From the NCBI GenBank assembly GCA_030640805.1, contig DAOWIS010000007.1, positions 1-46,211 of the forward strand: DNA of 46,211 nt, given 5' to 3'. The notes beneath the pieces are model-generated. The model was not told where the DNA came from. It made no database searches and saw only the letters and a program-made list of their open reading frames with translations. The stretch comes from a bacterium (GTDB lineage: Bacteria; Patescibacteriota; Minisyncoccia; Minisyncoccales; DAOWIS01). The position numbers were made by a program, and so were the translations under genes. How positions within the stretch are numbered: the first letter of the stretch is position 1; each line of letters begins with the position of its first letter. This document shows, one piece after another, positions 2,082 to 45,824 of the stretch.

Positions 2082-4925
2082 ATGTTTTTTATTCCTAAAA
2101 TTTTTGGCGATGCCAATAAAAAATACTTAAAGAAAACTCAGTCCTTAGTTGATAAGATTAATAACCTCGAATCAAAATTCGAGAGCCAAGCACATAAAGA
2201 TTTATATGCTTGGCTAAAAGAAAAAACTGCCGAACTCAAAGAACGATTAAAAAAAGGCGAAACTCTGGACGATATTCTTCCAGAAGCCTTTGCTTTATTA
2301 AGAGAATCAGCCAAAAGAACTTTAGGTCAGCGACCATTTGATGTTCAGTTGATCGGAGGGATTGTTTTACATCAGGGTAAGATTGCTGAAATGAAAACCG
2401 GTGAAGGAAAAACTTTAGCGGCTACTATGCCGGTTTACCTTAATGCCTTAGAAGGAAAAGGCGTTCATGTAGTCACAGTCAATGATTATTTAGCCAAAAG
2501 AGATACGGTCTGGATGGGACAAATCTATCACTTACTTGGGTTATCAGTGGGATGTATTGTTCATGAAGCTGCCTATTTGTATGATCCGAAATATCAAGGA
2601 GAAAATTCCAAATCACAAATTCCAAATTACAAACAAATTCCAAATTTCAAATCCCAAACTAATCCAAAATCCAAAATCCAAAATCCAAAATCCAAAAATG
2701 GAGAGAGAGATGAAAAAAGGGATTTAGTTGGAGGATTTAAGGTTATTGAGAGCTATCTGAGACCAGTTTCCAGAAAGGAGGCCTATTTGGCTGATATTAC
2801 CCATGGAACCAATAACGAATTTGGTTTTGATTATTTAAGAGACAATATGGCTTATGATCTGAACCAGATGGTTCAGAGGGGATTCAATTTTGTAATTGTT
2901 GACGAAGTGGATTCAATTTTAATAGATGAAGCTAGAACTCCTTTAATAATTTCTGCCCCAGATTTTGAAAGCACCAAAATGTATGGAGAATTCGCCACAA
3001 TTATTCCCCGGCTTAAGGGAAGTATTGATTATAATATTGATGAAAAAATGAAAGCCGCGACCTTAACCGATGAAGGAATTTCCAAGGTTGAAAAAATATT
3101 GGGAATAGAGAATATTTATCAAGAAAAAGGAATAAAAGAGGTTCATCATTTAGAACAAGCCCTAAGGGCTGAAGTTCTTTTTAAAAAAGACAGAGATTAT
3201 GTGGTTAAGCCTGCCCGCAATGCTTCGCATAGCGATGCAGGCGGGGATGATCAAGTAATTATCGTGGACGAATTTACTGGTCGATTGATGCCCGGTCGTC
3301 GTTATTCGGGAGGACTTCATCAAGCTCTTGAAGCAAAAGAAGGAGTTAAGGTTCAACAAGAATCTCGAACCTTGGCGACTATAACTTTTCAAAATTATTT
3401 TCGAATGTATAAAAAGTTAGCCGGAATGACCGGAACTGCTGCCACCAGCGCAGAAGAGTTTTATAAAGTTTATAAATTGGAAGTGATAATTATTCCTACT
3501 AATCGACCGATGATAAGAGAAGATTTTCCTGATTTAATTTATAAAACCGAAAGAGGAAAAATTAAAGCTATAATTAAAGAGATTAAAGAATCTTATCAGA
3601 GAGGACAACCCGTCTTAGTAGGAACGACTTCTATTGAAAAGAACGAAAAATTGGGAGCTTTTTTAGAAAGAGAAGGAATTCCTCATCAGATTTTAAATGC
3701 AAAACATCATGAAAAAGAAGGAGAAATTATTGCTCAAGCCGGCAGACTTAAAGCAGTGACGGTGGCTACTAATATGGCTGGTCGGGGAGTAGATATAATA
3801 TTAGGCGGTAACCCACCTGATTCTAAAGAAGCCGAAAAAGTAAAAAAACTGGGCGGACATTATGTCATTGGAACCGAGAGACACGAAGCCTGGAGAATTG
3901 ACAATCAGCTTCGAGGAAGAACTGGTCGTCAAGGGGATGCGGGTTGTTCCCGATTTTTTATTTCTTTAGAGGACGATTTAGCCAGAATTTTTGGTGGAGA
4001 TAAAGTAAAATTTTTAATGGAACGACTGATTCCCGAAGATCAACCCATTGAAACCAAAATGGTTTCTAAGGTTATTGAATCAGCTCAGGCCAGAATTGAA
4101 GGTTATAATTTTGATTTAAGAAAACATCTTTTGGACTACGATGATGTTTTAAACAAACAAAGAGAAATTATTTATAAGAAAAGGAAAAACGTATTAGAGA
4201 TAAAAGATAAAAGCCAAGAGGCAAGTTTGAGAGAAATAGTTTGGGAAATGATAGAAAAAGAGATTAGAAAAATTTGTGGTTTTCATTTTGCCTCTGATTA
4301 TTCTGAGGATTGGAATTGCGAAGAGGTTAGTGAAATTTTTAAAACAATTTTTCCTGTTCCAGAAAATTTACATAGAAACCTTTTAATTATTAAAGAGGAG
4401 AAAGAAAACCTAAATCTAAAGCGAGAGAAAATAGTGAACTACATTTTTAAGTTAGCTGAGACCGCTTTTTTTAAAAAAGGAGAGGAATGGGGAGAAAAGG
4501 CAGAGCAAATTCAGAAAATAGTTTTACTTAATAGTTTAGATGTTCTTTGGCAGGAGCATATAGATTTTATGGAATATTTAAGAGATAGCGTGAGATTAAG
4601 GGCTTATGGGCAGAGGGATCCTTTGGTGGAATATAAAAATGAAGGTCATCGTGCTTTCAAGAAATTATTGGAAAATTGGCAGAACAGGGTAGTGGGGACA
4701 ATATTTAAAGTATCGTTGCAACAGCCAGTCGCGACATCGCCAATTCAAACCGAGAAACCAACTGAACCTCGTCAATATAATCAGCGGCAATCAGCTAAAA
4801 TCAGCATTGATCAACGTGCCAAGCCTAAGCTTGGCAGAAATGACCCTTGCCCTTGCGGCAAAAAAGACCCCAAAACTGGCAAGCCGATGAAGTATAAAAA
4901 ATGCTGCTATCCGAAATTTGGATAA
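2082..4925 (+). CDS. secA: preprotein translocase ATPase SecA with C-terminal SEC-C motif and repeat-derived insertions
   Basis: AEMKTGEGKT, VDEVDSILIDEARTPLIIS, ATNMAGRG, DNQLRGR, GRNDPCPCG; start taken at ATG 2082 because the longer ORF overlaps pdaD. Confidence 0.98.
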   Translation: MFFIPKIFGDANKKYLKKTQSLVDKINNLESKFESQAHKDLYAWLKEKTAELKERLKKGETLDDILPEAFALLRESAKRTLGQRPFDVQLIGGIVLHQGKIAEMKTGEGKTLAATMPVYLNALEGKGVHVVTVNDYLAKRDTVWMGQIYHLLGLSVGCIVHEAAYLYDPKYQGENSKSQIPNYKQIPNFKSQTNPKSKIQNPKSKNGERDEKRDLVGGFKVIESYLRPVSRKEAYLADITHGTNNEFGFDYLRDNMAYDLNQMVQRGFNFVIVDEVDSILIDEARTPLIISAPDFESTKMYGEFATIIPRLKGSIDYNIDEKMKAATLTDEGISKVEKILGIENIYQEKGIKEVHHLEQALRAEVLFKKDRDYVVKPARNASHSDAGGDDQVIIVDEFTGRLMPGRRYSGGLHQALEAKEGVKVQQESRTLATITFQNYFRMYKKLAGMTGTAATSAEEFYKVYKLEVIIIPTNRPMIREDFPDLIYKTERGKIKAIIKEIKESYQRGQPVLVGTTSIEKNEKLGAFLEREGIPHQILNAKHHEKEGEIIAQAGRLKAVTVATNMAGRGVDIILGGNPPDSKEAEKVKKLGGHYVIGTERHEAWRIDNQLRGRTGRQGDAGCSRFFISLEDDLARIFGGDKVKFLMERLIPEDQPIETKMVSKVIESAQARIEGYNFDLRKHLLDYDDVLNKQREIIYKKRKNVLEIKDKSQEASLREIVWEMIEKEIRKICGFHFASDYSEDWNCEEVSEIFKTIFPVPENLHRNLLIIKEEKENLNLKREKIVNYIFKLAETAFFKKGEEWGEKAEQIQKIVLLNSLDVLWQEHIDFMEYLRDSVRLRAYGQRDPLVEYKNEGHRAFKKLLENWQNRVVGTIFKVSLQQPVATSPIQTEKPTEPRQYNQRQSAKISIDQRAKPKLGRNDPCPCGKKDPKTGKPMKYKKCCYPKFG
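2603..2695 (+). repeat. in-frame heptamer array in secA
   Basis: AAATTCC/AAATCAC/AAATTAC/AAATTTC/AAATCCC then (AATCCAA)x5, encoding NSKSQIPNYKQIPNFKSQTNPKSKIQNPKSK. Confidence 0.9.
3210..3245 (+). repeat. in-frame 36-nt palindromic insertion in secA (PARNASHSDAGG)
   Basis: CCTGC-CCGCAATGC-TTC-GCATAGCG-AT-GCAGG-CGGG interrupts the conserved YVVK-DG.VIIVDEFTGR motif. Confidence 0.85.
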
Positions 4926-5650: not shown

Positions 5651-5733
5651 TCTAAAAATTTATTCGGGGATAACGCTCGATCGGACGGAATCCCCGAATA
5701 TATCTATTGATTTCAGAAATCAATAGATTGGAG

Positions 5734-22218: not shown

Positions 22219-22503
22219 ATGTCTTTTAAGATTAAGAAGATTGTTTTTGATGCATCTTTTGAGAGGAAATTTAAAAATTATAAGAAAAAATTGTCCAAAA
22301 AAGAATTAAATAGACTTAAAGAAAGATTAATAATTTTTAAAAATAATCCTTTTAATCCAAAACTAAAAACTCATAAACTAAAAGGTAGCCTGAAAGAATA
22401 TTGGGTTTTCTCAATTAGTTATTCTGATCGAATAATACTCCGTTTTTTAAATAAAGAAAAAGTATTTTTTATTGATGTTGGCGATCATAGTATTTATAAA
22501 TAG
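22219..22503 (+). CDS. RelE/YafQ-family mRNA interferase toxin
   Basis: F..NPF.PKLKTHKLKG.L..YW.FSI...DRII.RF......FIDVG.H..Y. Confidence 0.88.
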   Translation: MSFKIKKIVFDASFERKFKNYKKKLSKKELNRLKERLIIFKNNPFNPKLKTHKLKGSLKEYWVFSISYSDRIILRFLNKEKVFFIDVGDHSIYK

Positions 22504-22543: not shown

Positions 22544-24415
22544 ATGACAGATTTATCTTCTCAACAAATTCGAGGGCAATTTTTAGATTTTTTTGAAAAG
22601 AAGGGGCATAAAATTGTACCTTCTTTTTCTCTTATTCCTCTTGACCCCTCGGTTCTTTTAACTTCGGCTGGAATGCAACAGTTTGTTTTGTATTTAGAAG
22701 GGAAAAAAGATCCTCTCAAAGATTTTGGAACTTGGTATTTGACTTCTTGCCAGAAGTGTTTTAGAACTGCTGATATTAATGAAGTGGGCGACGATATTCA
22801 CCATACTTTTTTTGAGATGCTTGGCAATTGGTCAATAGGTGAAGATTCCAATAAAGGTTATTTTAAAGAGGAAGCAATTGATTTGGCTTTAGAATTTTTG
22901 GTTGATACTTTAGAACTGGACAAAGACAAATTTTGGATAACTGTATTCAAAGGAGGAAATAATATTCCCAAAGATGAGGAATCAATAAAAATTTGGCAGG
23001 AGAAAGGAATTCCCAAAGAAAGAATAAAAGAATTTGGAATGGAAGATAATTTTTGGGGTCCGATTGGCGAAGTGGGAGTTTGTGGACCCTGTTCAGAAAT
23101 TCATTATGATAGAGGAAAAGAATTTGGCTGCCAGAAGCCGGATTGCAGACCAAATTGTAAAAAATGTAATAGATTTATAGAAATCTGGAATTTGGTTTTT
23201 ATGGAATACAATAAAAATGCCAAATGCCAAATGCCAAATGCCAAATGTTATAATTATACTCTTTTGCCGCAGAGGAATGTGGATACGGGGATGGGGATAG
23301 AGAGATTAACTGCAGTTCTCCAGAATAAACCCTCCGGCTATGAGACCGATCTTTTTTGGCCAATAATTAAGAATATCCAAAAGATTTCTTCGAAAAAATA
23401 CAAGGAAGAAAAAAGAATTTTTAGGATTTTGGCTGACCATCTACGAGGATCAGTTTTTTTAATTGGCGATGGAATTTTACCTTCTAATTTAGATAGGGGA
23501 TATATTTTAAGGAGAATTCTTAGAAGAACTATCCGTTATGCCAAAGTTTTAAATTTACCAGAAAATTGGTATGTTAGTTCTATAAAGAAACTTTCAGAGA
23601 TTTATGGCTCTACTTATTTTGAATTAAGAACAAAAGAAACAGAAATTATTACCGTTTTTCAAAATGAAGAAGAGAAATTTGGAAGGGCCTTAGATAAAGG
23701 ACTGTCGCAATTTGATAAGTTGCTTAAGCGGAAAAGGAAAAGCGGAAAACGAAAGATTATAAGCGGATTAGAAGGATTTAGTCTCTATTCAAGTTTTTCA
23801 GTTCCGATTGATTTAATTCAGGAATTAGCCAAGGAAAGAGGTTTCGAAATTGATATAAAAGGATTTGAAAAAGCCCTTAAGGAACATCAAAAGATTTCTC
23901 GGGCTGGAGCCGAGAAAAAATTTGGGGGATTGGGATTAGAAAAGGTAAAAGATAAAAGGCAAAAGGTAAAAGTTATTAAATTGCACACTGCTACTCATTT
24001 GCTTCAACAAGCCCTAAGAGATGTTTTAGGAGACCAAGTAAAACAGATGGGAAGCGATATTAATGAAGAGAGATTAAGATTTGATTTTTCTTATGATAAA
24101 AAATTAACCCCCGAGCAAATTAAAAAAGTGGAAGAAATTGTTAATCAAAAAATTAAAGAAAATCTACCAGTTAAAAAAAATGAAATGGATTATCAACAAG
24201 CCCTAAAATCCGGCGCCCTGGCTTTTTTCAAAGAAAGATACCCAGAAAAAGTAACTGTTTATTTTATTGGCGATTCTTTAGAGAAATCTTATTCCAAAGA
24301 AATCTGTGCTGGTCATCATATTAATCGGACCGGAGAGCTCGGCCAATTCAAAATCGTCAAAGAAGAATCCTCTGGCGCAGGCGTAAGAAGAATAAAAGCC
24401 ACATTAGAATCTTAA
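22544..24415 (+). CDS. alaS: alanine--tRNA ligase, short form without C-Ala
   Basis: SAGMQQF, HHTFFEMLGNWS, IEIWNLVFM, DTGMGIER, HTATHLL, SSGAGVRRI. Confidence 0.97.
   Translation: MTDLSSQQIRGQFLDFFEKKGHKIVPSFSLIPLDPSVLLTSAGMQQFVLYLEGKKDPLKDFGTWYLTSCQKCFRTADINEVGDDIHHTFFEMLGNWSIGEDSNKGYFKEEAIDLALEFLVDTLELDKDKFWITVFKGGNNIPKDEESIKIWQEKGIPKERIKEFGMEDNFWGPIGEVGVCGPCSEIHYDRGKEFGCQKPDCRPNCKKCNRFIEIWNLVFMEYNKNAKCQMPNAKCYNYTLLPQRNVDTGMGIERLTAVLQNKPSGYETDLFWPIIKNIQKISSKKYKEEKRIFRILADHLRGSVFLIGDGILPSNLDRGYILRRILRRTIRYAKVLNLPENWYVSSIKKLSEIYGSTYFELRTKETEIITVFQNEEEKFGRALDKGLSQFDKLLKRKRKSGKRKIISGLEGFSLYSSFSVPIDLIQELAKERGFEIDIKGFEKALKEHQKISRAGAEKKFGGLGLEKVKDKRQKVKVIKLHTATHLLQQALRDVLGDQVKQMGSDINEERLRFDFSYDKKLTPEQIKKVEEIVNQKIKENLPVKKNEMDYQQALKSGALAFFKERYPEKVTVYFIGDSLEKSYSKEICAGHHINRTGELGQFKIVKEESSGAGVRRIKATLES
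23215..23249 (+). repeat. in-frame heptamer array (AAATGCC)x4 in alaS
   Basis: encodes NAKCQMPNAKC between EIWNLVFMEYN and LPQRNVDTGMG. Confidence 0.92.
23940..23974 (+). repeat. in-frame heptamer array AAAAG(GT/AT/GC/GT/TT) in alaS
   Basis: encodes KVKDKRQKVKV just before HTATH. Confidence 0.8.
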
Positions 24416-25765: not shown

Positions 25766-27364
25766 ATGAAAAAAATAATTCAGATTCAGCCCAATGAGGA
25801 ATTAATTTCCATTATAGATAAGATAATAAAATCTCAGGCTCAAGAAATATTTTTGGTGGTTCCATCGGAAAATAAAATTTTAATTAGTTCTGGCAATTTA
25901 AAACTTTTAAAAAGAGAATCGGAAGCGATTCGAAAAAAAATTATTATTGTTAGTTCTGACCCTAAATATAAAAAATTAGCCAAAAAATTAAAAATAGAAG
26001 CAAAAACCAAAGTCCCTATTTTAAAAGAAGAAGAATTAATTCAAGAAGTAGAGACATTACCACGTCAAATTAAAAAAGTATTAGATATTATTCCCCGAAC
26101 TAAAAAAGAAAGAGCAATCCTTAAAGAACCCAAATTAAGTATTTTTTCCAAAAAGAAGAAAAAAGTAGAAGTTTCCTTATCTAAATCCAAAGATAAAAGT
26201 TGGCTTTCGATTTCTTCTTCAAATTGGCTTTATATACTTTTAGGAGTATTTATAATAATAGTAGGAATATTAAGTTTTTTATTTCTTCCAAAAGTAGAAA
26301 TTAAAATTATTCCTAAAATAGAAAAATTAGAATTTTCTTTAGATCTAAAAGTCAAAGAGGAAGCTTCTCAAGTTGATTTTACAAATAGCGAAGTTCCCGG
26401 TCAGTATTTTTTGGTAGAAAGAGAGAAATCTAAAGAATTTCTTACTACTGGAGAAGAAGAAAGAGAATCTAAGGCAAAAGGGTTAGTTTCTCTTTATAAT
26501 GCTTACAGTTCTCAATCTCAAACACTAGTAGCCAATACTCGTTTTATTTCTAGCTCGGGAAAATTATTTAGAATTCCTAAAAGCGTGGTAATTCCAGGAG
26601 CAACAGTCAAAGAAAGTAAGATTATTCCCAACAGCACTGAAGTAGAAGTGGTAGCTGACCAGCCGGGGGAGGAATATAATATTGGCCCAACTACTTTTTC
26701 TATCCCTGGGTTTAAGGGCACTCCAAAATATACTGGTTTTTATGCTAAATCTTTTCAAGCAATGGAAGGAGGATATTTGGGCGAAGTTAAGATAGTTATA
26801 GAAGAAGATCTCGAGGCAGCTAAAGATTCCTTGAGTTCAGAATTATTTCAAGATTTAGAGACCGAATTAAAAAGTAAAATTCCTTCCGATTTGAAATTAA
26901 TAGAAGGTGTCCTCTCGGGGAAAGTTTCCCAAGTTTTTTTTAATAAGAAAGAAGGAGATGTAGGAGAGAGTTTTACTCTAAAAATAAAAGGACTTATTCG
27001 GGTTTTAGTTTTTAAAGAAGAGGATGTTAAAAAAATAGTTGAAAGCTCCGTTAATTTAAAAATAACAGATAACAAAATTTCTCTTCCTTCCACTTTACAC
27101 CTTAATTATTCTTTAGATAAAATTGATTTTGATGAAAAAACAATGGATTTGAGATTAATTGTAGAAGAAAAAATTGCTTGGCAGATTAATTCCGAAGAAA
27201 TTAAAAAAAATATTATTACTAAAAACGAAGAGGGAATTCGGATTTATTTTTCTAGCTATCCTGGGATAGAAAAAGCTGAAGTTAAACTTTGGCCATTTTG
27301 GGTGAAAAAAGCCCCGAATAATAAAAATAAAATAAAAGTAAAAGTTGTCTATCCTGGGGGTTGA
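25766..27364 (+). CDS. single-TM protein with baseplate J/gp47-like extracellular domain
   Basis: KAKG.V..YN......LVANTRF....GK.FR, V.ADQPG.EYNI, GG; ends WPFW...P....I; follows the FtsA-like gene. Confidence 0.7.
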
Positions 27365-27399
27365 CTCCCAAAAATTATTTTGTTAGATTAATAGCGTCA

Positions 27400-27618
27400 A
27401 TGAAGAAAAATAACATTGAAAGAAAAGAGGGGATAGTAATTGAAACCTTACCTAATACTAATTTTAAAGTTCGATTAGAAAACGGAAGGGAGATATTGGC
27501 TCATCTTTCAGGTAAAATGCGTCTTCATTTTATAAGGATTTTAGTGGGAGATAAAGTAATAATAGAGTTGGGACAGGATAGTCCAGAAAGAGGAAGAATA
27601 GTTTATCGGAATAAATAA
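27400..27618 (+). CDS. infA: translation initiation factor IF-1
   Basis: [35 protein letters not shown]; promoter TTGACT 27361 / TAGATT 27384. Confidence 0.97.
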
Positions 27619-27620
27619 GC

Positions 27621-27734
27621 ATGAAGGTACGTTCATCGGTAAAAAAAATTTGTAAAAAATGTAAGATAGTTCGGCGGAAAGGCCGTATTTTTGTCATTTG
27701 TTCGAATCCAAAACATAAACAGAGACAGGGCTAA
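27621..27734 (+). CDS. rpmJ: 50S ribosomal protein L36
   Basis: [37 protein letters not shown]; not in ORF track. Confidence 0.98.
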
Positions 27735-27893
27735 GCGATTGCCTTCGGCAATCTAAATTAAAAATTCAAAGTGAAAAGTTAAAAATTACAATTTACAATT
27801 CAAAATTAATTAAATTTAAATATTTTTAAATTTCGTTTCGTCATTTTGCACTTTACATTTTGCATTTTGCATTTGACTGAGCGAAGCGAGGGA
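27735..27893. repeat. capped inverted heptamer element (rpmJ-rpsM spacer)
   Basis: GATTGCC-TTC-GGCAATC cap, A-rich 7-mers, inverted (CATTTTG)n, GACTGAGCGAAGCGAGGGA cap. Confidence 0.8.
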
Positions 27894-27895
27894 AC

Positions 27896-28285
27896 GTGCC
27901 ACGAATTGCCGGGGTAAATATCCCAGAAAATAAACAAATAGAGATTGCTTTAACCTATGTTTATGGAATAGGACGGTTTTTAAGTAATAAAATTTTGTCT
28001 CAAGCTAAAATTGAACCCGGTAGGCCTGCTTCTAAATTAACTTCAGAGGATTTAAGTAAACTTCGAGAAATTATTGAAAGAAATTATAGAATTGAAGGTG
28101 AACTCCGAAGGGAAAAAATGATGAATATTAAACGGTTAAAGGAAATAGGGTGTTATCGAGGAGGTCGTCACATAAGGGGTTTGCCGGTAAGGGGACAGCG
28201 AACGCAAACTAACACCAGAACTATTAGAGGTAATGTCAGACGAACAGTAGGTAGCGGAAGAAGAAAAGCCGCCGAAAAAACCTAA
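27896..28285 (+). CDS. rpsM: 30S ribosomal protein S13
   Basis: RIAGVNIP, IALTY.YGIG, YRG.RH..GLPVRGQRT.TN. Confidence 0.98.
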   Translation: MPRIAGVNIPENKQIEIALTYVYGIGRFLSNKILSQAKIEPGRPASKLTSEDLSKLREIIERNYRIEGELRREKMMNIKRLKEIGCYRGGRHIRGLPVRGQRTQTNTRTIRGNVRRTVGSGRRKAAEKT

Positions 28286-28420
28286 GCGCTTCGCCAAATG
28301 CCAAATGACAAATGGCAAATTCAAAATTACAATTCAAAATTTGAAATTTTTAATTTTACATTGTAATTTTGCATTTTTCACTTTGAATTTTTAATTTGAC
28401 CGAGACCGAAGGTCGAGGAA
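28286..28420. repeat. capped inverted heptamer element (rpsM-rpsK spacer)
   Basis: GCGCTTCGC, CAAATGC/CAAATGA/CAAATGG..., inverted T-rich units, GACCGAGACCGAAGGTCGAGGAA. Confidence 0.82.
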
Positions 28421-28422
28421 AC

Positions 28423-28878
28423 ATGGGGAAAAAGAGAATCATTAAAAAAACCGAAGAAGAGATTTTAAAAGAGAAAGAAAAATTAGAATCTGCTTTTAAG
28501 AAAGGAGGAGAGTTAAAAAAAATCTCTAGATCTATCTATAAAGGGAGAATTTATATTAAAGCAAGCTATAATAATATTATCATAACTCTTACTGATCAAA
28601 AGGGTGATGTTTTGTCTTGGAGTAGCGCAGGAAGTATTGGTTTTAAAGGGACCAAAAAATCTACTCCTTTTGCTGCTGGTCGGGTGGCAGCAATCTTAGC
28701 CGAGAAAGCAAAAAAGATAGGCGTTCGAGAAGTCCAGATTTTTATAAAGGGGATAGGAAGCGGGAGAGATTCGGCTGTTCGATCTTTAGCTAATTCAGGA
28801 ATTAATATAATTTCTATTAAAGACATAACCCCTATTCCACATGGGGGGTGTAGACCTCCAAAAGTCCGACGAGTGTAA
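28423..28878 (+). CDS. rpsK: 30S ribosomal protein S11
   Basis: ASYNN.IIT.TD..G, GFKG.KKSTPFAA, DITPIPH.GCRPPK.RRV. Confidence 0.98.
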   Translation: MGKKRIIKKTEEEILKEKEKLESAFKKGGELKKISRSIYKGRIYIKASYNNIIITLTDQKGDVLSWSSAGSIGFKGTKKSTPFAAGRVAAILAEKAKKIGVREVQIFIKGIGSGRDSAVRSLANSGINIISIKDITPIPHGGCRPPKVRRV

Positions 28879-28986
28879 TAAGAACCTCTCGCTTCGCTCA
28901 AGAACCTCCTTAATTTGCGAAGCAAATTACAGTGAGCAGAGCGAACGGTTCCGATTCGCTAAGGAATAATTATTTAATCTTGAATT

Positions 28987-29622
28987 ATGAAAGAAGATAA
29001 ATGTAAAATTTGCAGAAGGGTTGGTCAAAAACTTTTTTTAAAAGGAGAAAAATGTTTTTCTCCTAAGTGTATTATGATAAGGAAAAATTATCCCCCTGGT
29101 GCTAAAGGTAAACGTCGAAAAAGAGAAATTTCTGAATATGGGAAGGGGCTTAAAGAGAAACAAAAACTTAAAAAGTCATTCGGAATCTCAGAGAAACAAC
29201 TTAGACGTTATGTAAGAGAAATGCTATTAGAAAAAAAGAGAAAAAAAATTGATTCTATTAATCTTTTAATTCAGAAATTAGAAACTAGATTAGACAATAC
29301 CGTTTTCCGATTAGGCTTTGCTTTTTCTCGAAGCATAGCTAGGCAATTAGTATCTCACGGTCATTTTATGGTAAATAACCGAAAAGTAAATATTCCTTCT
29401 TTCCAAGTTAAAAAGGGTGATATTATTTCTATAAAAGAAAGTAGCAAAAAGAAAGGTTTTTTTTCTGACTTAGATTTATTCTTAAAAAAACATCAACCAC
29501 CTAGTTGGTTATCTTTGGATAAGGCAAAACAAGAAGGAAAAGTAGTAGGATTACTCGATACTGAAGAGGTAACCTCCCAAGGAATAAATATCCCTTTAAT
29601 TTTAGAATCTTATAATAGGTAA
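28987..29622 (+). CDS. rpsD: 30S ribosomal protein S4 (zinc-binding type)
   Basis: CKICRR.G.KLFLKGEKC..PKC, LETRLDN.VFRLG, ARQLVSHGH. Confidence 0.98.
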   Translation: MKEDKCKICRRVGQKLFLKGEKCFSPKCIMIRKNYPPGAKGKRRKREISEYGKGLKEKQKLKKSFGISEKQLRRYVREMLLEKKRKKIDSINLLIQKLETRLDNTVFRLGFAFSRSIARQLVSHGHFMVNNRKVNIPSFQVKKGDIISIKESSKKKGFFSDLDLFLKKHQPPSWLSLDKAKQEGKVVGLLDTEEVTSQGINIPLILESYNR

Positions 29623-29630
29623 ACTAAAAA

Positions 29631-29710
29631 AATTTTCAATTTTCAATTCCCAATTTTAAAATTAAATCATTAAAAATTCATTAGAAATTAGAAATTGGAA
29701 ATTAGAAATT
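29631..29710. repeat. inverted heptamer element (rpsD-rpoA spacer)
   Basis: (AATTTTC)n ... (AGAAATT)x4, one unit GGAAATT. Confidence 0.88.
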
Positions 29711-29719
29711 TAAGCAAGT

Positions 29720-30520
29720 ATGATTTCTCTTCCCACTAAACCAAAATTAGTTCAGAAAGGAAATAATCGAGCAAAATTTAAAATAGAAGGTCTCTATCCG
29801 GGTTATGGGATTACTGTTGGAAACTCTCTTCGTCGGGTTCTTTTGTCTTCTTTACCCGGGGCAGCAATTACCAAAGTGAAAATAAAAGGAGTGGCTCATG
29901 AATTTTCTACTATTCCCGGAGTTTTAGAAGATGTACTTCAAATTCTTTTAAATTTAAAGCAGGCGAGGCTTAGAATGGAAGGGGGCCAGCCCTTACCAAT
30001 TACTCTTAAAATAAAAGGATTAGAAAAAGGTAAAAAGGAAAGAAATATTAAGGGCTCGGATATAAAATGTCCCTCTCAATTAGAAGTAGTTAATAAAGAT
30101 CTTCACTTAGCCACTATCACTTCTTCAAAAGGAGAATTAAATATGGAAATGGAGGTAGAGAAAGGATTGGGATACTTATCAGTTGGACAGAGAAAAAAAG
30201 AAAAAGTAGAAATAGGAACCATTATTTTAGATGCTTTTTTTACTCCTGTTCGGCGAGTAAATTTTGAAGTTGAAAATATGATAGTAGGAAAAAGAACCGA
30301 TTATAATCGTCTTTTTTTAGACATTAAAACTGATGGAACTATAAAACCAGAAGATGCTTTATACCAAGCCCTAAAGATTTTAGTGGATCATTTTAAAATT
30401 TGGTTAGAGGAATTAGAGAAATCTCCCAAAAAATCCGTTAAGAAAACTACCAAAAAAACTACCAAGAAAGCCATAAAGAAAACCGTTAAGGAATCTTTAA
30501 CTAAGAAAAAGAAGAAATAA
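29720..30520 (+). CDS. rpoA: RNA polymerase alpha subunit lacking alpha-CTD, with Lys-rich tail
   Basis: GYG.T.GNSLRRVLLSSLPGAA, HEFSTIPGV.EDV, D..FTPV.RV, TDG.I.PEDAL; ends KKTTKKTTKKAIKK...KKKKK. Confidence 0.97.
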   Translation: MISLPTKPKLVQKGNNRAKFKIEGLYPGYGITVGNSLRRVLLSSLPGAAITKVKIKGVAHEFSTIPGVLEDVLQILLNLKQARLRMEGGQPLPITLKIKGLEKGKKERNIKGSDIKCPSQLEVVNKDLHLATITSSKGELNMEMEVEKGLGYLSVGQRKKEKVEIGTIILDAFFTPVRRVNFEVENMIVGKRTDYNRLFLDIKTDGTIKPEDALYQALKILVDHFKIWLEELEKSPKKSVKKTTKKTTKKAIKKTVKESLTKKKKK

Positions 30521-30870
30521 TGAAGCATTTAAAAAAAGGAAGAAAATTACATAGAAAGAAAGATCAAAGAAGGGCTCTTTTGAAAAATTTAGCCCGAACT
30601 TTATTTTTACAAGAAAAAGTTACTATTACTAAAGCCAAAGCTAAAGAACTATCCTCTTTTTCTGAAAAATGCATAACCCGAGCAAAAAAAGGAGATCTTT
30701 CTTCAAGAAGAATTCTGCTGAAATATTATTCCCCGGATTTAGTTAAAAAATTAATTGAAGAAATTACTCCTCGTTATAAAGAAAGAGCAGGAGGATATAC
30801 AAGGATTATAAGATTAGGACCAAGATCGGGAGATGGAGCAGAAATGGCAGTAATTGAATTAGTGAAATAA
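30520..30870 (+). CDS. rplQ: 50S ribosomal protein L17
   Basis: MKH.KKGRKL.R...QR.ALLKNL, R.GGYTRI..LG.R.GD.AEMA.IEL. Confidence 0.98.
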   Translation: MKHLKKGRKLHRKKDQRRALLKNLARTLFLQEKVTITKAKAKELSSFSEKCITRAKKGDLSSRRILLKYYSPDLVKKLIEEITPRYKERAGGYTRIIRLGPRSGDGAEMAVIELVK

Positions 30871-30873
30871 TAA

Positions 30874-30972
30874 AATTTTCAATTCTCAATTTTCAATCAA
30901 TTTTTAATTTTTAAATTTTAAAATTAAGTCATTGAAAATTCATTAGAAATTAGAAATTAGAAATTAGAAATT
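30874..30972. repeat. inverted heptamer element (rplQ-rplM spacer)
   Basis: (AATTYTC)x3 ... (AGAAATT)x4; same core as 29631-29710. Confidence 0.88.
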
Positions 30973-30981
30973 ATTAGTTCT

Positions 30982-31341
30982 ATGGAGCATAAAACTCACA
31001 CAATTGATGCTTCCGGAAAGATTTTAGGAAAATTAGCAGTAGAAGTGGCTATATTATTAAGGGGGAAACATAAACCTGATTTTTCTCCTAATAAAGACAT
31101 AGGAGACTTTGTTGAAATAATTAACATAGAGAAGATTAAATTTAGTGGAAAAAAGTTTGAGCAAAAAGTTTATTGGCATCATACTGGATATCCGGGCGGA
31201 ATAAAATCCCAGACTCTTAAAGAATTATTTGAAAAGAATCCCCAAAAAGTTTTTATAAAAGCAGTAAAAGGAATGTTGCCAAAAAATAAATTAGCAGCAA
31301 AACAAATTAAGAGATTAAGAATCATGAATCATGAATCATGA
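30982..31341 (+). CDS. rplM: 50S ribosomal protein L13, short form
   Basis: IDA.GK.LG.LA..VA..LRGKHKP.F.P..D.GD.V, Y.HHTGYPGG.K, AVKGMLPKNKL. Confidence 0.97.
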   Translation: MEHKTHTIDASGKILGKLAVEVAILLRGKHKPDFSPNKDIGDFVEIINIEKIKFSGKKFEQKVYWHHTGYPGGIKSQTLKELFEKNPQKVFIKAVKGMLPKNKLAAKQIKRLRIMNHES

Positions 31342-31360
31342 AATATGGAACATGAAACAG
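31319..31360 (+). repeat. heptamer array spanning the rplM stop and rpsI start
   Basis: GAATCATx3, GAAATAT, GGAACAT, GAAACAG. Confidence 0.88.
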
Positions 31361-31894
31361 AAAACTAAGAAAACTATTACAAAGAAAAAAATTACTAAGA
31401 AAAAAGTGGTAAAAGTAGTAAAGAAGAAGAAAGTTGTTGCCAAGAAGCCCAAAAAGAAAGCTCCTTTAAAGAAGCCCAAAGTTAAAGTTTTAAAGAAAAA
31501 GCCGGACCGGTATTTTGAGGCGGTTGGCAGAAGAAAAACTAGCATAGCCAGAGTTCGGCTTTTTACCCGGGGAGAAAAAATATTTTTGGTTAACGATAAA
31601 AATTTAAAAGAATATTTTCCTGTCTTTGAACTTCAGCAAATTGTCGTTGCTTCTTTAAGAAAAATGAAAAGTTTGGAGAAGTTTAGAGTTTCGATTAAGG
31701 TAAAAGGAGGAGGAATAAGAGCTCAAGCTGAAGCCATCCGTCATGCTACAGCCAGGGCTTTAGTAAAATTTAACCCTAATTTTAAAAAGAGATTAAAAAA
31801 AGCCGGCTATCTAACTCGGGATTCCCGAATGAAAGAAAGAAAAAAATTCGGTCTCAAAAAAGCCCGCCGTGCCCCCCAGTGGCAGAAAAGATAA
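31352..31894 (+). CDS. rpsI: 30S ribosomal protein S9 with Lys-rich N-terminal extension
   Basis: AVGRRKTS.ARVRL, GGG...QAEAIRH, LTRD.RMKERKKFGL.KARRAPQW.KR; start could also be 31331. Confidence 0.97.
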   Translation: MKQKTKKTITKKKITKKKVVKVVKKKKVVAKKPKKKAPLKKPKVKVLKKKPDRYFEAVGRRKTSIARVRLFTRGEKIFLVNDKNLKEYFPVFELQQIVVASLRKMKSLEKFRVSIKVKGGGIRAQAEAIRHATARALVKFNPNFKKRLKKAGYLTRDSRMKERKKFGLKKARRAPQWQKR

Positions 31895-38454: not shown

Positions 38455-38538
38455 ATTATAGCATACTGTAATAATTTGTCAAGGGTAGAAAGGTGAGGGT
38501 TGGGAAAATTTGCCAAGATGGAAAATTTTATTTATACT
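38455..38538. promoter_or_regulatory. divergent promoters
   Basis: minus strand: TTGACA(38482-38477), TGcTATAAT(38463-38455); plus strand: TTGCCA 38510, 17 bp, TATACT 38533. Confidence 0.7.
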
Positions 38539-38544
38539 AAAAAG

Positions 38545-39810
38545 ATGAACGAGAGATTTGTAATTGAAGGGGGGAGACCATTAGAAGGCACAGTTGAGAT
38601 AAGCGGCTATAAGAACGCGGCTGGGCCGATTCTGGCTGCCACCTTACTTACTAACCAAAAGTGTATTATTGATAATTTGCCTCAAGTTGAAGATGTTTTT
38701 AACTGTCTGAAGGTCTTAAAGGGTATAGGAGTAAAGATAAATCAATTAGAAAAGAGAAAATTTGAAATTGAAGCCGGCGCTGAAGTCGATCCATCTAAAA
38801 TGAATCCTGATTTAATCGGCAGGACCAGAATGTCGGTTTTATTAATGGGTGCTTTACTTCCCCGGTTTAAAGATTTTAAAATTTCCCGACCCGGGGGAGA
38901 TAAAATCGGTCTGCGACCTATTACTACTCATCTTAACGCCTTAGAAAAATTAGGAGCCAAAATTAAAGAAGAAGGAGATTTTTATCATTTTAACTGCGCA
39001 AATTTAAAAGGAAGAGAGATTGTTTTAAAAGAATTTAGCGTAACAGCTACTGAGAATTTAATGTTGGCCTCAGTCTTAGCCCAGGGAAAAACTATTATTA
39101 AAGGAGCAGCGGCCGAGCCTCAAGTTCAAGATTTAGGTGGTATTTTAAAAGAAATGGGAGCAATAATAGAAGGAGTAGGCACTCATACTGTTGTTATAGA
39201 AGGAATTGAAGAACTGCAGGGAGTAGAGCATAAAGTTATTTCTGATCCTTTAGAGGCCGGTACATTTATAGTGGCTAGCGCGATTACTCCTGGCCAGGTA
39301 GAAATAAAAAATATTATTTTTGAACACTTAGATTTATTTTTAGATAAATTAGAAGAAATGGGAGTTGATTTCAAAAAAAAATCTGATTCTCTACTAGTTA
39401 GATTTTCTCCTAAACTAAAAGCCGTTCATGTTCAAGCTCTTCCTTACCCTGGTTTTCCTACTGATTTAGTGCCAATAATTGTTCCAGCCTTAACCCAGGC
39501 CGAGGGTCGAAGCTTAATCCACGATCCTTTATACGAAAATAGATTTAATTATGTTCAAGAATTAAGAAAGATGGGAGGAGACATAGAGATAGTGGATCCT
39601 CACCGAGTTTTTGTCTTTGGCAAAACTCCTCTTTTTGGAAGAGCTATCGAGAGTTGGGATATTAGAGCCGGGGCTTCCTTAATTATCGCTGGGCTCATAG
39701 CCAGAGGCAAAACAGTAATTAATAATGTCTATCAGATTGATAGGGGATATGAAAGAATTGAAGAAAAATTACAGAACCTTGGCGCAAGCATAGAGAGAAT
39801 AAAATCCTAA
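38545..39810 (+). CDS. murA: UDP-N-acetylglucosamine 1-carboxyvinyltransferase (Asp variant)
   Basis: ISG.KNAA, PGGDKIG.RP, SVTATEN, PYPGFPTD, DIRAG, IDRGYE. Confidence 0.97.
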   Translation: MNERFVIEGGRPLEGTVEISGYKNAAGPILAATLLTNQKCIIDNLPQVEDVFNCLKVLKGIGVKINQLEKRKFEIEAGAEVDPSKMNPDLIGRTRMSVLLMGALLPRFKDFKISRPGGDKIGLRPITTHLNALEKLGAKIKEEGDFYHFNCANLKGREIVLKEFSVTATENLMLASVLAQGKTIIKGAAAEPQVQDLGGILKEMGAIIEGVGTHTVVIEGIEELQGVEHKVISDPLEAGTFIVASAITPGQVEIKNIIFEHLDLFLDKLEEMGVDFKKKSDSLLVRFSPKLKAVHVQALPYPGFPTDLVPIIVPALTQAEGRSLIHDPLYENRFNYVQELRKMGGDIEIVDPHRVFVFGKTPLFGRAIESWDIRAGASLIIAGLIARGKTVINNVYQIDRGYERIEEKLQNLGASIERIKS

Positions 39811-39974
39811 ATCCTAATTTCTAATAAAATTCCCAATGACAAAATCCCAATGTCAAATGAATGATTAAATATCAAATGACAAAATAATAATTTAATCATT
39901 TAGTCATTGGTCATTGATTTGACATTTGTCATTAGACATTTGTCATTTTGCTAGGCATTAGACATTAGGATTTA
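39802..39974. repeat. long inverted heptamer element (murA-mreB spacer)
   Basis: AAATCCT/AATGACA/AATGTCA units on the left; TGACATT/TGTCATT/AGGATTT on the right. Confidence 0.88.
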
Positions 39975-39985
39975 GAAGATATTTT

Positions 39986-40984
39986 ATGAAAATTGGTATT
40001 GATCTTGGTACTTGTAATTCCTTAGTTTTTATCCCTAAAAAGGGGGTGGTTTTAAATGAACCCTCGGTAGTAGCTGTTTCTGTTCCGGAAAATAAAATAT
40101 TGGCAGTGGGAGATGAAGCAAAAGAAATGATTGGGAGGACTCCAGAGACCATTATTGCCTACCGTCCCTTAAAAGATGGAGTAATTGCTGATTTTCGAGT
40201 AACCGAAGCAATGATTCGTTATTTTCTAAACAAAGTTCAAGGAAGGTTGAGATTTTTTCGACCAGAAGTATTAATTGGCATTCCGGCCGGAGTTACTTCC
40301 ACTGAGCGCCGGGCGGTAATTGAGGCGGCAATGCAAGCTGGCGCTAAATCGGCTTATGTAGCCAAAGAGCCGGTTTTAGCGGCGATTGGAGCAGGAATTC
40401 CCATTAATTCCTCTTCAGGTAATATGATTATAGATATTGGAGGAGGAACATCAGAAGTAGCAGTTATCTCGCTTGGTGGAATAGTTGCTTGTGCTTCTTC
40501 TCGAGTGGGGGGGGATAAAATGGATGAAGCAATCTCCATCTTTATAAAAGAGAAATACAATTTAGCTATAGGCGAACAAACTGCCGAAGAAATAAAGATA
40601 AAAATTGGCTTTGCTCTGCCTCAAAAAAAAGAGGAGGTAATGGAAATTAAAGGAAGAGATCTTTTAGAGGGTCTACCAAAAAGTATTTTGATTTCTTCAA
40701 ATGAGATAACTGAAGCGATGTCTAACCAACTTCAAGAAATTATTACTGTCATAAAAACTGTTCTTAGAGATACTCCCCCTGAACTCTCAGCTGATATTAT
40801 AAACAAAGGGATGGTTCTTTCAGGTGGGGGAGCTCTGTTGCGAAAAATTGATGAACTTTTTACCAAAGTTACCGGGGTTCCCTGTTATATTGCTGATGAG
40901 CCAATGCTTTGTGTGGCTAAAGGAACAGGTGCAGTTCTTGAACATTTAGAAGTTTATAAAAGAAGTCTAATGACCCAAAAGTAA
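39986..40984 (+). CDS. mreB: rod shape-determining protein MreB
   Basis: IGIDLGT, NEPSVVA, RPLKDGVIADF, DIGGGT, TPPELSADI, LSGGGALL. Confidence 0.96.
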   Translation: MKIGIDLGTCNSLVFIPKKGVVLNEPSVVAVSVPENKILAVGDEAKEMIGRTPETIIAYRPLKDGVIADFRVTEAMIRYFLNKVQGRLRFFRPEVLIGIPAGVTSTERRAVIEAAMQAGAKSAYVAKEPVLAAIGAGIPINSSSGNMIIDIGGGTSEVAVISLGGIVACASSRVGGDKMDEAISIFIKEKYNLAIGEQTAEEIKIKIGFALPQKKEEVMEIKGRDLLEGLPKSILISSNEITEAMSNQLQEIITVIKTVLRDTPPELSADIINKGMVLSGGGALLRKIDELFTKVTGVPCYIADEPMLCVAKGTGAVLEHLEVYKRSLMTQK

Positions 40985-44771: not shown

Positions 44772-45734
44772 ATGATTATTGGGCATCAGTCAATTTTGAG
44801 GATTTTGGAAAGAAGCATTAAGAAAGATAGTTTTTCTCATGCTTATTTATTTGCTGGTCCAGAAAAAGTAGGCAAGAGAACTATAGCCAAAGAATTTGCT
44901 AAATTGCTTTTAGCCAGTCATTCCTCAACCAAAATCGGCAAGGAATGCCATTGTCGTTCCTGCCAGGATATTGAAAAGGGGATTCATCCAGATTTTTTAG
45001 AAATAAAGGCCAAAGAAAAAGAAATTGGCATTAAGCAAATAAGAGATCTTAGGCGCTATCTTTCTTTATCTTGTCATCATGGTCGGGCTAAAGTATCTGT
45101 AATTGATAAGGCAGAAAAAATGACCAAAGAGGCTTCCAATGCTTTATTAAAAACCTTAGAAGAGCCAAAAGGAAGAACAGTTTTAATTTTGGTAACCTCT
45201 TTGCCTAATTTTCTTTTAGCGACCATTGTTTCTCGTTGCCAAATTATAAAATTTTTGGGAGTTTCTTCTTTTTTAATAGAGGAATCTCTTTTAAAATTAG
45301 GAGCCGAGAAAAAATTAGCCAGAGAAATTTCTAAAATTTCTCAAGGCAAGCCGGGAAAAGCCCTTGAATTTTTTAGCAATCCAGAAAAATTAAAAGAAGA
45401 AAAAAAACAAATGGAAGAAATAATATCTCTTTCCCAAAGAGATTTAGTGAAGCGGTTTGAAGTGGTAGAAAAAATTAGTCAAAATCCCAGCCAGATTAAA
45501 AATTTCCTTTCTTTGTGGAAAATTTGGTTTCGAGATTTATTTTTAGTAAAGCTGGGAATAGAAGAATTAACTTATTCTAATCTTGAAATAAACAAAGATA
45601 AAATTTTAAGACAATTTTCCTTATTTGATTTGATGCGGATAATCAAATTAACTGAAGATATAGATTATTTTATTTCTTTTACTAATGTTAATCCCAGGTT
45701 GGCATTAGAAGTACTTATGCTAAATGCCAAATGA
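44772..45734 (+). CDS. holB: DNA polymerase III subunit delta'
   Basis: IIGH, HAYLF.GP..VGK, C.C.SC....G.HPD, ASNALLKTLEEP, TIVSRCQ. Confidence 0.93.
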   Translation: MIIGHQSILRILERSIKKDSFSHAYLFAGPEKVGKRTIAKEFAKLLLASHSSTKIGKECHCRSCQDIEKGIHPDFLEIKAKEKEIGIKQIRDLRRYLSLSCHHGRAKVSVIDKAEKMTKEASNALLKTLEEPKGRTVLILVTSLPNFLLATIVSRCQIIKFLGVSSFLIEESLLKLGAEKKLAREISKISQGKPGKALEFFSNPEKLKEEKKQMEEIISLSQRDLVKRFEVVEKISQNPSQIKNFLSLWKIWFRDLFLVKLGIEELTYSNLEINKDKILRQFSLFDLMRIIKLTEDIDYFISFTNVNPRLALEVLMLNAK

Positions 45735-45823
45735 AAAATGACAAATGCCAAATTACAGTTCAAAATTTAAAATTTTTAATTTAACTGAGCCCGAGCGAAG
45801 CGAAGCGAGCGAGGGCGAAGGAA
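45722..45823. repeat. capped heptamer element spanning the holB stop
   Basis: AAATGCC AAATGAA AAATGAC AAATGCC AAATTAC...; AACTGAGCCCGAGCGAAGCGAAGCGAGCGAGGGCGAAGGAA. Confidence 0.82.
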
Positions 45824-45824
45824 T

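Follow-up and report, generated by a model that had tools for sequence, protein, structure and literature searches.

The window, a 46,211-nt contig (C45) from the 721-kb, 49-contig, 97%-complete genome of a bacterium of the order Minisyncoccales (Patescibacteriota), carries a ribosomal protein (r-protein) operon whose spacers are filled with inverted arrays of 7-nt repeats. We think it probable that these spacers hold dispersed, gene-less palindromic elements with arms of tandem heptamers, and that the elements are selfish hairpins of the intervening sequence (IVS) type that are tolerated in operon spacers. The elements form repeat families with patchy spread among genomes, and a sister hairpin is found both with and without an "IVS protein" gene. 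One of the families, F2, is, judging by its sequence, an operon-spacer element and an rRNA insertion at once. In the literature that we searched, we found no previous description of this identity or of the phylum-wide F2 core.

Inverted heptamer elements in the operon spacers

Pfam confirmed the gene order infA-rpmJ-rpsM-rpsK-rpsD-rpoA-rplQ-rplM-rpsI, as well as the pair murA-mreB farther along the window. From infA to rpsI, 5 of the 8 junctions measure 97-161 nt. A first-pass annotation, made from the sequence alone, had described these spacers as filled with inverted heptamer arrays, and Tandem Repeats Finder places period-7 arrays where it had put them: at 27755-27809, 27842-27874, 28293-28320, and 28345-28397 on either side of rpsM; at 29631-29657, 29680-29710, 30874-30897, and 30942-30973 (100% matches) on either side of rpoA-rplQ; and at 39917-39948 between murA and mreB.

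The two spacers that flank rpsM belong to one family, F1. The rpmJ-rpsM spacer (27735..27895, + strand) consists of a G+C hairpin (27737-27753), an A-rich heptamer arm (27755-27809), and a T-rich arm (27812-27874), and its tail, GAGCGAAGCGAGGGAAC, directly abuts the GTG start codon of rpsM. Its palindrome covers 63 nt (73%), and its best copy in the genome (C8:27502-27644) matches at 87% over 143 nt. In the rpsM-rpsK spacer (28286..28422, +), the palindromic body is inverted relative to the rpmJ-rpsM spacer, and its right arm (28345-28397) can pair with 27755-27807, at 89% complementarity. In other words, the left arm of the rpmJ-rpsM spacer finds its better partner on the far side of rpsM (53 nt, 89%), not in its own right arm (73%). 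A further F1-like element (45717..45824, +), with an ATGCCAA array, a T-rich arm, and a GAGCGAAGCGAAG tail before the next start codon, matches the rpsM-rpsK spacer at 88% over 67 nt.

The other spacers have different designs. The rpsD-rpoA spacer (29623..29719, +) is a member of F2, with (AATTTTC)n at 29631-29657, a core at 29658-29682 that is an exact match to the F2 core, and (ATTAGAA)n at 29680-29710. The rplQ-rplM spacer (30871..30981, +) has arrays at 30874-30922, the core at about 30920-30944, and 4.6 copies of ATTAGAA at 30942-30973; its palindrome covers 49 nt (73%), and a copy on C11 matches at 91% over 99 nt. The annotation had proposed that these two spacers share one design, and they do: they are 89% identical over 71 nt, with an alignment z score of 17.8 that none of 500 dinucleotide shuffles reached. 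The third inverted design that it had noticed, in the murA-mreB spacer (39802..39985, +), also holds up, and is a family of its own, F3. Outer arms of AAATCCT / AGGATTT enclose the F3 element (39827-39950), of which a copy on C21 matches at 99% over 123 nt. The annotation missed the repeat in the rpsK-rpsD spacer (28879..28986, +), which we call F4. F4 has a G+C-rich, non-heptameric hairpin (28881-28960; fold z = -3.57), followed by a 34-nt stretch that is repeated before other genes, and a GAGCGAAGCGA motif on the minus strand. Its copies are on C32 (93% over 85 nt) and C22 (84% over 108 nt).

The GAGCGAAGCGA motif is found at 24 places in the genome, of which those in the window are at 27876-27892, 28887-28899 (minus strand), and 45793-45805. 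It recurs at the ends of several types of element and just before start codons.

We compared the complementarity of the arms to shuffles in which each arm was shuffled separately and dinucleotides were kept, so that the A-rich or T-rich bias of the arm was kept as well. Four of the five heptamer palindromes are more complementary than the shuffles: rpmJ-rpsM (z = 4.2, reached by 1 of 500 shuffles), rpsM-rpsK (z = 5.5, 0 of 500), rpsD-rpoA (z = 3.9, 2 of 500), and murA-mreB (z = 5.2, 0 of 500). The rplQ-rplM palindrome is marginal (z = 2.0, 25 of 500). The long hairpins that the annotation expected are predicted strongly for murA-mreB (fold z = -6.35) and rpsM-rpsK (-3.04), moderately for rpmJ-rpsM (-1.96) and rpsD-rpoA (-2.31), and not above chance for rplQ-rplM (-0.68). 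The predicted folding ensemble for rplQ-rplM is very diffuse, with a minimum free energy structure at a frequency of just 0.0066 and an unstructured centroid. A diffuse ensemble would fit with hairpins that slide in 7-nt register. Because the arms beat the shuffles and the two F2 spacers align significantly, the outcome that the annotation had named as fatal (arms no more complementary than AT-rich shuffles, and no significant alignment) did not occur, and overall its interpretation was partly right.

Dispersed families and arrays in the rest of the genome

To define the families, we compared the six window spacers to the genome with BLAST and then ran two rounds of nhmmer. This gave 18 loci for F1, 22 for F2, 18 for F3, and 6 for F4. 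When the genome was shuffled in 200-nt blocks, the four models had no hits. Copies within a family are 85-99% identical, and alignments that include the flanks show sharp element ends with unrelated DNA on either side. As every one of the six spacers belongs to such a multi-copy family, the annotation's idea of non-autonomous elements is well supported. F3 also shows that the hairpin itself persists. Single copies fold with z of -2.8 or below in 14 of 16 cases, and the most divergent copies retain the full-length hairpin using other heptamers; at columns 27 and 103, for example, 11 copies have U-A and 3 have C-G. (We relied on single-copy folds because the RNAalifold consensus of the 16 copies has just 11 pairs, owing to gaps in the alignment.) Several contig ends lie within such elements (on C21, on C25, and at the start of C45), so the elements break assemblies.

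To see where the elements sit, we annotated the neighbouring genes of the 64 loci with Pfam. Fourteen of the 64 adjoin r-protein genes, including S19|L2, L14|S17, L18|L6, and SecY|L15 in the S10-spc region (C35 and C43). Another 2 are in rRNA genes and 1 is between rpoB and rpoC. About three-quarters of the loci are beside other genes, such as ftsZ, dnaK/dnaJ, tRNA synthetases, Mur ligases, pilus genes, gyrB, and topA. Given a rough, uncomputed expectation of 8-10% for random spacers, based on about 50-55 r-protein genes, there is perhaps a modest excess beside r-protein genes, at two to three times that rough figure. The annotation's suggestion that the elements target highly transcribed operons is therefore weakly supported. 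The same families sit beside varied genes throughout the genome, and so are not peculiar to this operon.

The two loci in rRNA genes are both members of F2. The 23S gene (C13) carries an insertion of about 140 nt at model position 1218, where a hairpin just ahead of the conserved GGUAGGGGAGC has its loop; going by the E. coli numbering, we take this hairpin to be helix 45. The F2 member within it is at C13:19923-20037 (E = 2.8e-9). In the 16S gene (C27, minus strand), the insertion at model positions 452-465 is 155 nt long, and the F2 member is at C27:1518-1624 (E = 1.6e-9). Over 174 nt, the 23S and 16S insertions share 86% identity. In each, an F2 heptamer palindrome sits atop a basal stem of about 28 bp that is rich in G+C, and the predicted folding energies are -63 and -58 kcal/mol. 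Both also contain GAGCGGTAGCGA, a variant of the GAGCGAAGCGA motif. F2 thus has insertions in the loops of rRNA helices (the 23S and 16S copies) and a long stem of terminal inverted repeats (marginal in rplQ-rplM), as does an IVS, whose place in 23S rRNA is helix 25 or 45. Because the window's copies are located in mRNA spacers, they are relatives of IVSs and not IVSs in the strict sense.

Some IVSs carry a small gene from PF05635 ("23S rRNA intervening sequence protein") in their loop, and this genome has two PF05635 genes. None of the copies of F1-F4 in this genome carries one, but another hairpin family does. The PF05635 gene at C22:8915-9292 sits between two arms that, at C43:11039-11142, are directly adjacent to each other with no gene between them (88% identity over 48 nt and 91% over 57 nt). 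Within the same order, PF05635 is present in 79 of 151 genomes, and the copies number as many as 7. We examined the 29 best loci, of which 28 were testable, and in 13 of the 28 the flanks form an inverted repeat with z of at least 4, as compared to 10 of 217 similarly sized control genes from this genome. Across the order, these flanks are heptamer arrays with many different units. The closest solved structure to this genome's PF05635 protein is XCC0516 from Xanthomonas (2gsc, E = 1.2e-21); Xanthomonas has heptamer repeats of its own (see below), and this likeness is a lead. A PDDEXK_3 (PF13366) nuclease gene (C12:8719-9141) that lies between two other genes has the same architecture as the PF05635 cassettes, and is bracketed by ACGCTGA / TCAGCGT arrays (C12:8690-9180).

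How widespread are the elements? This genome is alone in its family in our collection, and its nearest kin are from the same order. The annotation had stated that these operon spacers are normally short, and in 29 same-order genomes this is correct: just 26 of the 167 junctions that we measured, over 17 genomes, are 57 nt or more. At the equivalent junctions of these 29 genomes, the elements are not conserved. Eight of the long spacers, in 7 genomes, have a period-7 self-match of at least 0.48, and in several of them the heptamers clearly form inverted arrays, built of unrelated units (ACAGATA/TGTTAAC or GTTCAAA, for example). It appears that different elements repeatedly colonise the same permissive sites, which argues against a conserved regulatory device.

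The 25-nt core of F2 (AAAATTWARTCATTDAAAATTSATT) can be followed farther. It is present at 119 or more loci in species-representative genomes, where a back-of-envelope estimate from composition gives less than one match by chance. The 80 of these loci that we read all have an AATTTTC-type left arm, the core, and a GAAAATT-type right arm, and most are named Patescibacteria. Among the core matches listed, one from Azambacteria (L157) is in a 16S gene, and at least one, from Kaistella, seems to have arisen by chance. In a sample spread evenly over the phylum, the core was found in 3 of 401 genomes, including this one (10 matches), and a reversed-pattern control had no matches. F2 occurs in both orientations relative to the flanking open reading frames (ORFs); among the core matches listed, the right flank is on the + strand in 20 and on the - strand in 18. 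Patchiness, multiple copies, and free orientation are together the mark of a DNA element that spreads. In some F2 elements from other Patescibacteria (L148, L150, L177, L196, and L203), a G+C-rich hairpin sits inside the element, with the core on one side of it and the right arm on the other, which suggests that elements insert into one another.

More broadly, heptamer arrays are over-represented in this genome. There are 254 arrays of period 7, versus 22 in the block-shuffled genome. The corresponding counts are 43 versus 12 for period 6 and 87 versus 39 for period 8, and, relative to the shuffled control, 76 versus 12 for period 14 and 31 versus 3 for period 21. Using a longest-ORF map, 97 of the 377 spacers of at least 60 nt hold an array, as do 85 of 289 co-directional gaps, 5 of 40 convergent gaps, and 7 of 48 divergent gaps. 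On the same crude map, of the 361 arrays with a period of 7, 14, or 21, 164 are in the cores of ORFs and 147 are outside ORFs.

The arrays inside ORFs differ in their copy number. For high-identity period-7 arrays, there are 37 inside ORFs and 22 outside with 2 copies, 8 and 16 with 3 copies, 31 and 8 with 4 copies, 6 and 3 with 5 copies, and 1 and 0 with 7 copies. Inside ORFs there is a dip at 3 copies and a peak at 4, as would be expected from stepwise gain of 7-nt units if the reading frame survives only when three units (21 nt) are added. This pattern implies that a mutational process with 7-nt steps is active genome-wide, independent of any role of the RNA. For example, in secA, the arrays AAATTCC/AATCCAA (2603..2697, +) are in frame and encode a 31-residue insert, SKSQIPNYKQIPNFKSQTNPKSKIQNPKSKN, between two conserved blocks. 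At this site, 7 of 11 same-order orthologues have 0-3 residues, and the other 4 have shorter inserts of similar flavour. Further high-identity heptamer arrays lie within alaS (23215-23247 and 23940-23972) and a glycosyltransferase gene (41639-41672).

Explanations and known systems

In the explanation that we favour, the spacer elements would be of the same kind as IVSs, which have a long terminal stem and sometimes a small gene for a PF05635 four-helix bundle in the loop. The elements would spread by a DNA-level mechanism into sites where a transcribed hairpin is harmless. These would be mostly gaps between co-directional genes, the loops of rRNA helices, and, if the length keeps the frame, the surface loops of proteins. 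Afterwards, the arrays would lengthen and shorten by slippage in 7-nt steps. Within the operon, the elements would be transcribed through as AU-rich hairpins, and RNase III would probably cut them as a side effect, not as an evolved control device.

Several points weigh against this explanation. Because we found no transposase, target-site duplication, or empty site (an autonomous partner was not systematically searched for), the argument for mobility comes from the distribution alone. As to the criteria for a MITE (miniature inverted-repeat transposable element), the inverted arms are present, and no target-site duplication was evident in a brief look at the flanks of one copy alignment. The rplQ-rplM copy folds no better than its shuffles, by energy. 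The family loci are somewhat enriched beside r-protein genes, and rpsM, rpsL, and rpsU have in common the right half of F1, the GAGCGAAGCGA tail, and a GTG start, which could be a selected leader. The insertions in the rRNA genes could be expansion segments that have been kept. Finally, AT-rich, low-complexity sequence inflates similarity scores, which the shuffles control in part, and the genome-wide gene map is a crude longest-ORF call.

The annotation had also considered RNA processing or stability signals. If the hairpins were selected as such, they might be RNase III "punctuation" of r-protein transcripts, with rpsM released from its bracketing stem as 16S and 23S rRNA are, or they might protect the ends of mRNAs. 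The genome does have an RNase III gene, in the region of C14:6040-6435, and the homology of F2 to the rRNA insertions is indirect support for this idea. When 27735-28423 is folded as a single 689-nt RNA, 82 predicted pairs join the two spacers around rpsM; the inter-spacer duplexes are at -38.6 and -24.9 kcal/mol, versus -15.9 and -20.4 for the local hairpins. Among 217 genes, rpsM has the strongest inverted repeat that brackets a gene (z = 29.4). The preference of the arrays for co-directional gaps and the modest excess beside r-protein genes also point this way. However, the co-transcriptional folding of the RNA and the presence of translating ribosomes would disfavour a long-range stem, and there is no asymmetry between the strands: of 54 loci, the sense strand is more stable in 27 and less stable in 26 (P = 0.57, Wilcoxon test). 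In this genome and in others, F2 is found in either orientation relative to the flanking ORFs. The junctions are not conserved either, as the relatives mostly have short spacers, or else have unrelated elements at other junctions, and the same families adjoin many classes of genes that are weakly related to each other. A selected signal seems unlikely to us overall, and it stays alive because of the rpsM bracket and the F1 tail that is common to rpsM, rpsL, and rpsU.

The remaining explanations fit the data less well. The arrays might have grown in place, by replication slippage from heptamer seeds in each spacer, with no copying between loci. There are period-7 arrays with many units everywhere, including inside genes; the copy numbers within ORFs fit with stepwise slippage; and at the SecA loop, 4 of 11 relatives have related inserts of differing length. 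But growth in place would not give non-repetitive cores, or entire elements of 100-170 nt, that are shared by unlinked loci at 85-99% identity, nor an identical 25-nt core in distant genomes. Slippage accounts for how arrays change and not for the origin of families, and for the four families it is contradicted, so we consider it very unlikely as the whole explanation. Another idea is that the elements are of the repetitive extragenic palindromic (REP) type and are mobilised by REP-associated tyrosine transposases (RAYTs), which act on DNA hairpins. This 0.72-Mb genome has three RAYT-like Y1 transposase genes (PF01797). None of the three is flanked by heptamer arrays, which would be the cognate repeats if these were REPs. 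Instead, the complete genes on C18 and C4 are flanked by short, differing palindromes of their own, CTATTGATTTCCGAAATCAATAG and CTATTGAAGTCGGAYTTCAATAG, each of which is found at more than 10 loci. We therefore rejected mobilisation by RAYTs as highly improbable. The least credible idea is that the spacers contain transcription terminators, attenuators, or promoters for the operon. There are 23 promoter-like matches, some of them within elements, versus 12.1 ± 3.2 in shuffles, but such matches say little when the sequence is an AT-rich repeat. Intrinsic terminators were rejected because the combination of a G+C-rich stem and a T run is absent from the five spacers: the stems are AU-rich, no terminator-like site was found in these spacers, and there are 2 in the whole region, as compared to 2.7 in shuffles. 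Also, arrays are rare between convergent genes, and Rfam covariance models had no matches at the gathering score in the entire window, which includes the known r-protein leaders. A retroelement route is without support, as no reverse transcriptase (PF00078) was found in the 97%-complete genome.

The two classical REP-RAYT systems are at C18:8860-9015 with 9745-9795 and at C4:3650-3750 with 4480-4510, and one copy of a palindrome is in the window, at 5702-5730. The RAYT-like proteins are about 235-240 amino acids long, and HUH and YIHxNP motifs are visible in the translations.

Returning to IVS-type hairpins, among the closest known systems is the IVS in helix 45 of Coxiella burnetii, which is excised by RNase III (PMC4990558). 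It is described as having tandem heptamers, two or three depending on the strain, and RNase III makes its 5' cut at the first of them (PMC4990558). Like that IVS, our elements have a long stem of terminal inverted repeats, a helix-45 loop site (the 23S copy of F2), tandem heptamers, and a sporadic distribution, and the optional PF05635 ("S23p") gene in the loop is another likeness to IVSs. Unlike the Coxiella IVS, as described there, the copies in the window are gene-less, lie in mRNA spacers, and have arms that are almost wholly heptamer arrays, and there are about 20 copies per family in one genome. Also, excision by RNase III has been shown for Coxiella and others, while we infer it here. 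In the candidate phyla radiation (CPR), a survey reports many short (under 200 bp), uncharacterised insertions without ORFs at the sites in 23S genes where IVSs are known, as well as insertions in both 16S and 23S genes that contain PF05635 ORFs (PMC11270868). The two rRNA insertions in this genome fit that description. The main text of the CPR survey does not use the word "repeat", and reports neither the heptamer build nor copies in the spacers of protein-coding genes (PMC11270868). A literature search for palindromic, MITE, or repeat elements in the CPR found nothing on this group.

Intergenic heptamers are known from other bacteria as well. The short tandemly repeated repetitive (STRR) sequences of heterocystous cyanobacteria are heptanucleotide repeats like those of Xanthomonas and Nostoc. 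As with STRR, heptamers are over-represented here relative to other periods, but the arrays here are not essentially intergenic, at least on the crude map that places 164 of 361 in ORF cores. REP and bacterial interspersed mosaic elements (BIMEs), enterobacterial repetitive intergenic consensus (ERIC) sequences, Correia elements, and Rickettsia palindromic elements are dispersed, non-autonomous intergenic palindromes, and those of Rickettsia also insert in frame into genes. To our knowledge, they lack heptamer periodicity, and in this genome the sequences of the genuine REP-RAYT systems are distinct from the heptamer elements.

In Xanthomonas, inverted GGGAATC heptamers, and in Nostoc, GGGGAYT heptamers, have a strong intergenic excess and no known function, and Calothrix heptanucleotides are mentioned in the same paper (PMC4692102). 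Xanthomonas has 70-75 array pairs, in convergent orientation and capable of forming stem-loops (PMC4692102). Those units are G-rich and quadruplex-forming, while the units here are AT-rich, and the account of the Xanthomonas and Nostoc repeats describes no conserved non-repeat core, rRNA copies, or gene-bearing form (PMC4692102). TAACTGA direct repeats are found in Beggiatoaceae, Cyanobacteria, and Bacteroidetes (PMC4679880). Like the elements here, they form arrays just upstream of start codons, are in excess before translation genes and inside r-protein operons, and are suspected of horizontal spread (PMC4679880). Unlike the elements here, they are described as direct repeats of one unit, with one inverted case reported, and not as multi-unit palindromes (PMC4679880).

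These heptamer hairpins are a known but unexplained class. Intergenic heptamer repeats (STRR, Xanthomonas, and TAACTGA) and the IVSs of rRNA have gone without an explanation for decades, and have been discussed separately. Our favoured explanation puts them in a single testable picture: the origin would be a selfish cassette, the spread is patchy within Patescibacteria, and the likely fate of the RNA would be cleavage by RNase III. A more speculative possibility, which we put forward tentatively and would not bet on, is that heptamer palindromes are the general form of rRNA IVSs, that is, horizontally spreading selfish hairpins, with or without PF05635, that can enter any transcript because RNase III would remove or tolerate them. 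R-protein operons might then be cut into separate messages, and rpsM might be freed from its 130-nt bracketing stem much as rRNAs are from their precursor. In any case, the elements lengthen rRNA genes and add low-complexity peptides to core proteins, which affects the annotation and phylogeny of candidate phyla.

Other features of the window and genome

The Pfam-supported genes of the operon are infA (27361-27618), rpmJ (27621-27734), rpsM (27896-28285), rpsK (which ends at 28878), rpsD (28987-29622), rpoA (29720-30520), rplQ (30520-30870), rplM (30982-31341), and rpsI (31331-31894). Farther along are murA (38500-39810) and mreB (39986-40984). A tRNA scan of the window found none. Among sequencing data sets, the region was matched by DNA contig sets (shares of 0.94, 0.50, and, for two sets, 0.05) and by no listed RNA run.

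The end of rplM and the beginning of rpsI overlap within another heptamer array (31319..31363, +), with period 7, AATCATG/GAAACAT units, and 6.6 copies, which spans both the stop codon of rplM and the start codon of rpsI. The same array thus supplies the stop codon of rplM and the first codons of rpsI. In RplM (119 residues), the L13 domain extends to residue 115, and in RpsI (187 residues), the S9 domain begins at residue 66. Ahead of the S9 domain, RpsI has a lysine-rich N-terminal extension of 65 residues (31331-31528).

Elsewhere in the window, a small ORF at 22219-22503 resembles the YafQ/RelE toxins (Pfam E = 6.6e-7, at the cut-off). It follows a short upstream ORF, and the two may be a toxin-antitoxin pair. 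Outside the window, in the 3' part of the 23S gene (C9:363-1518), about 1.15 kb separates model positions 2522 and 2655; this gap is probably an intron or another insertion.

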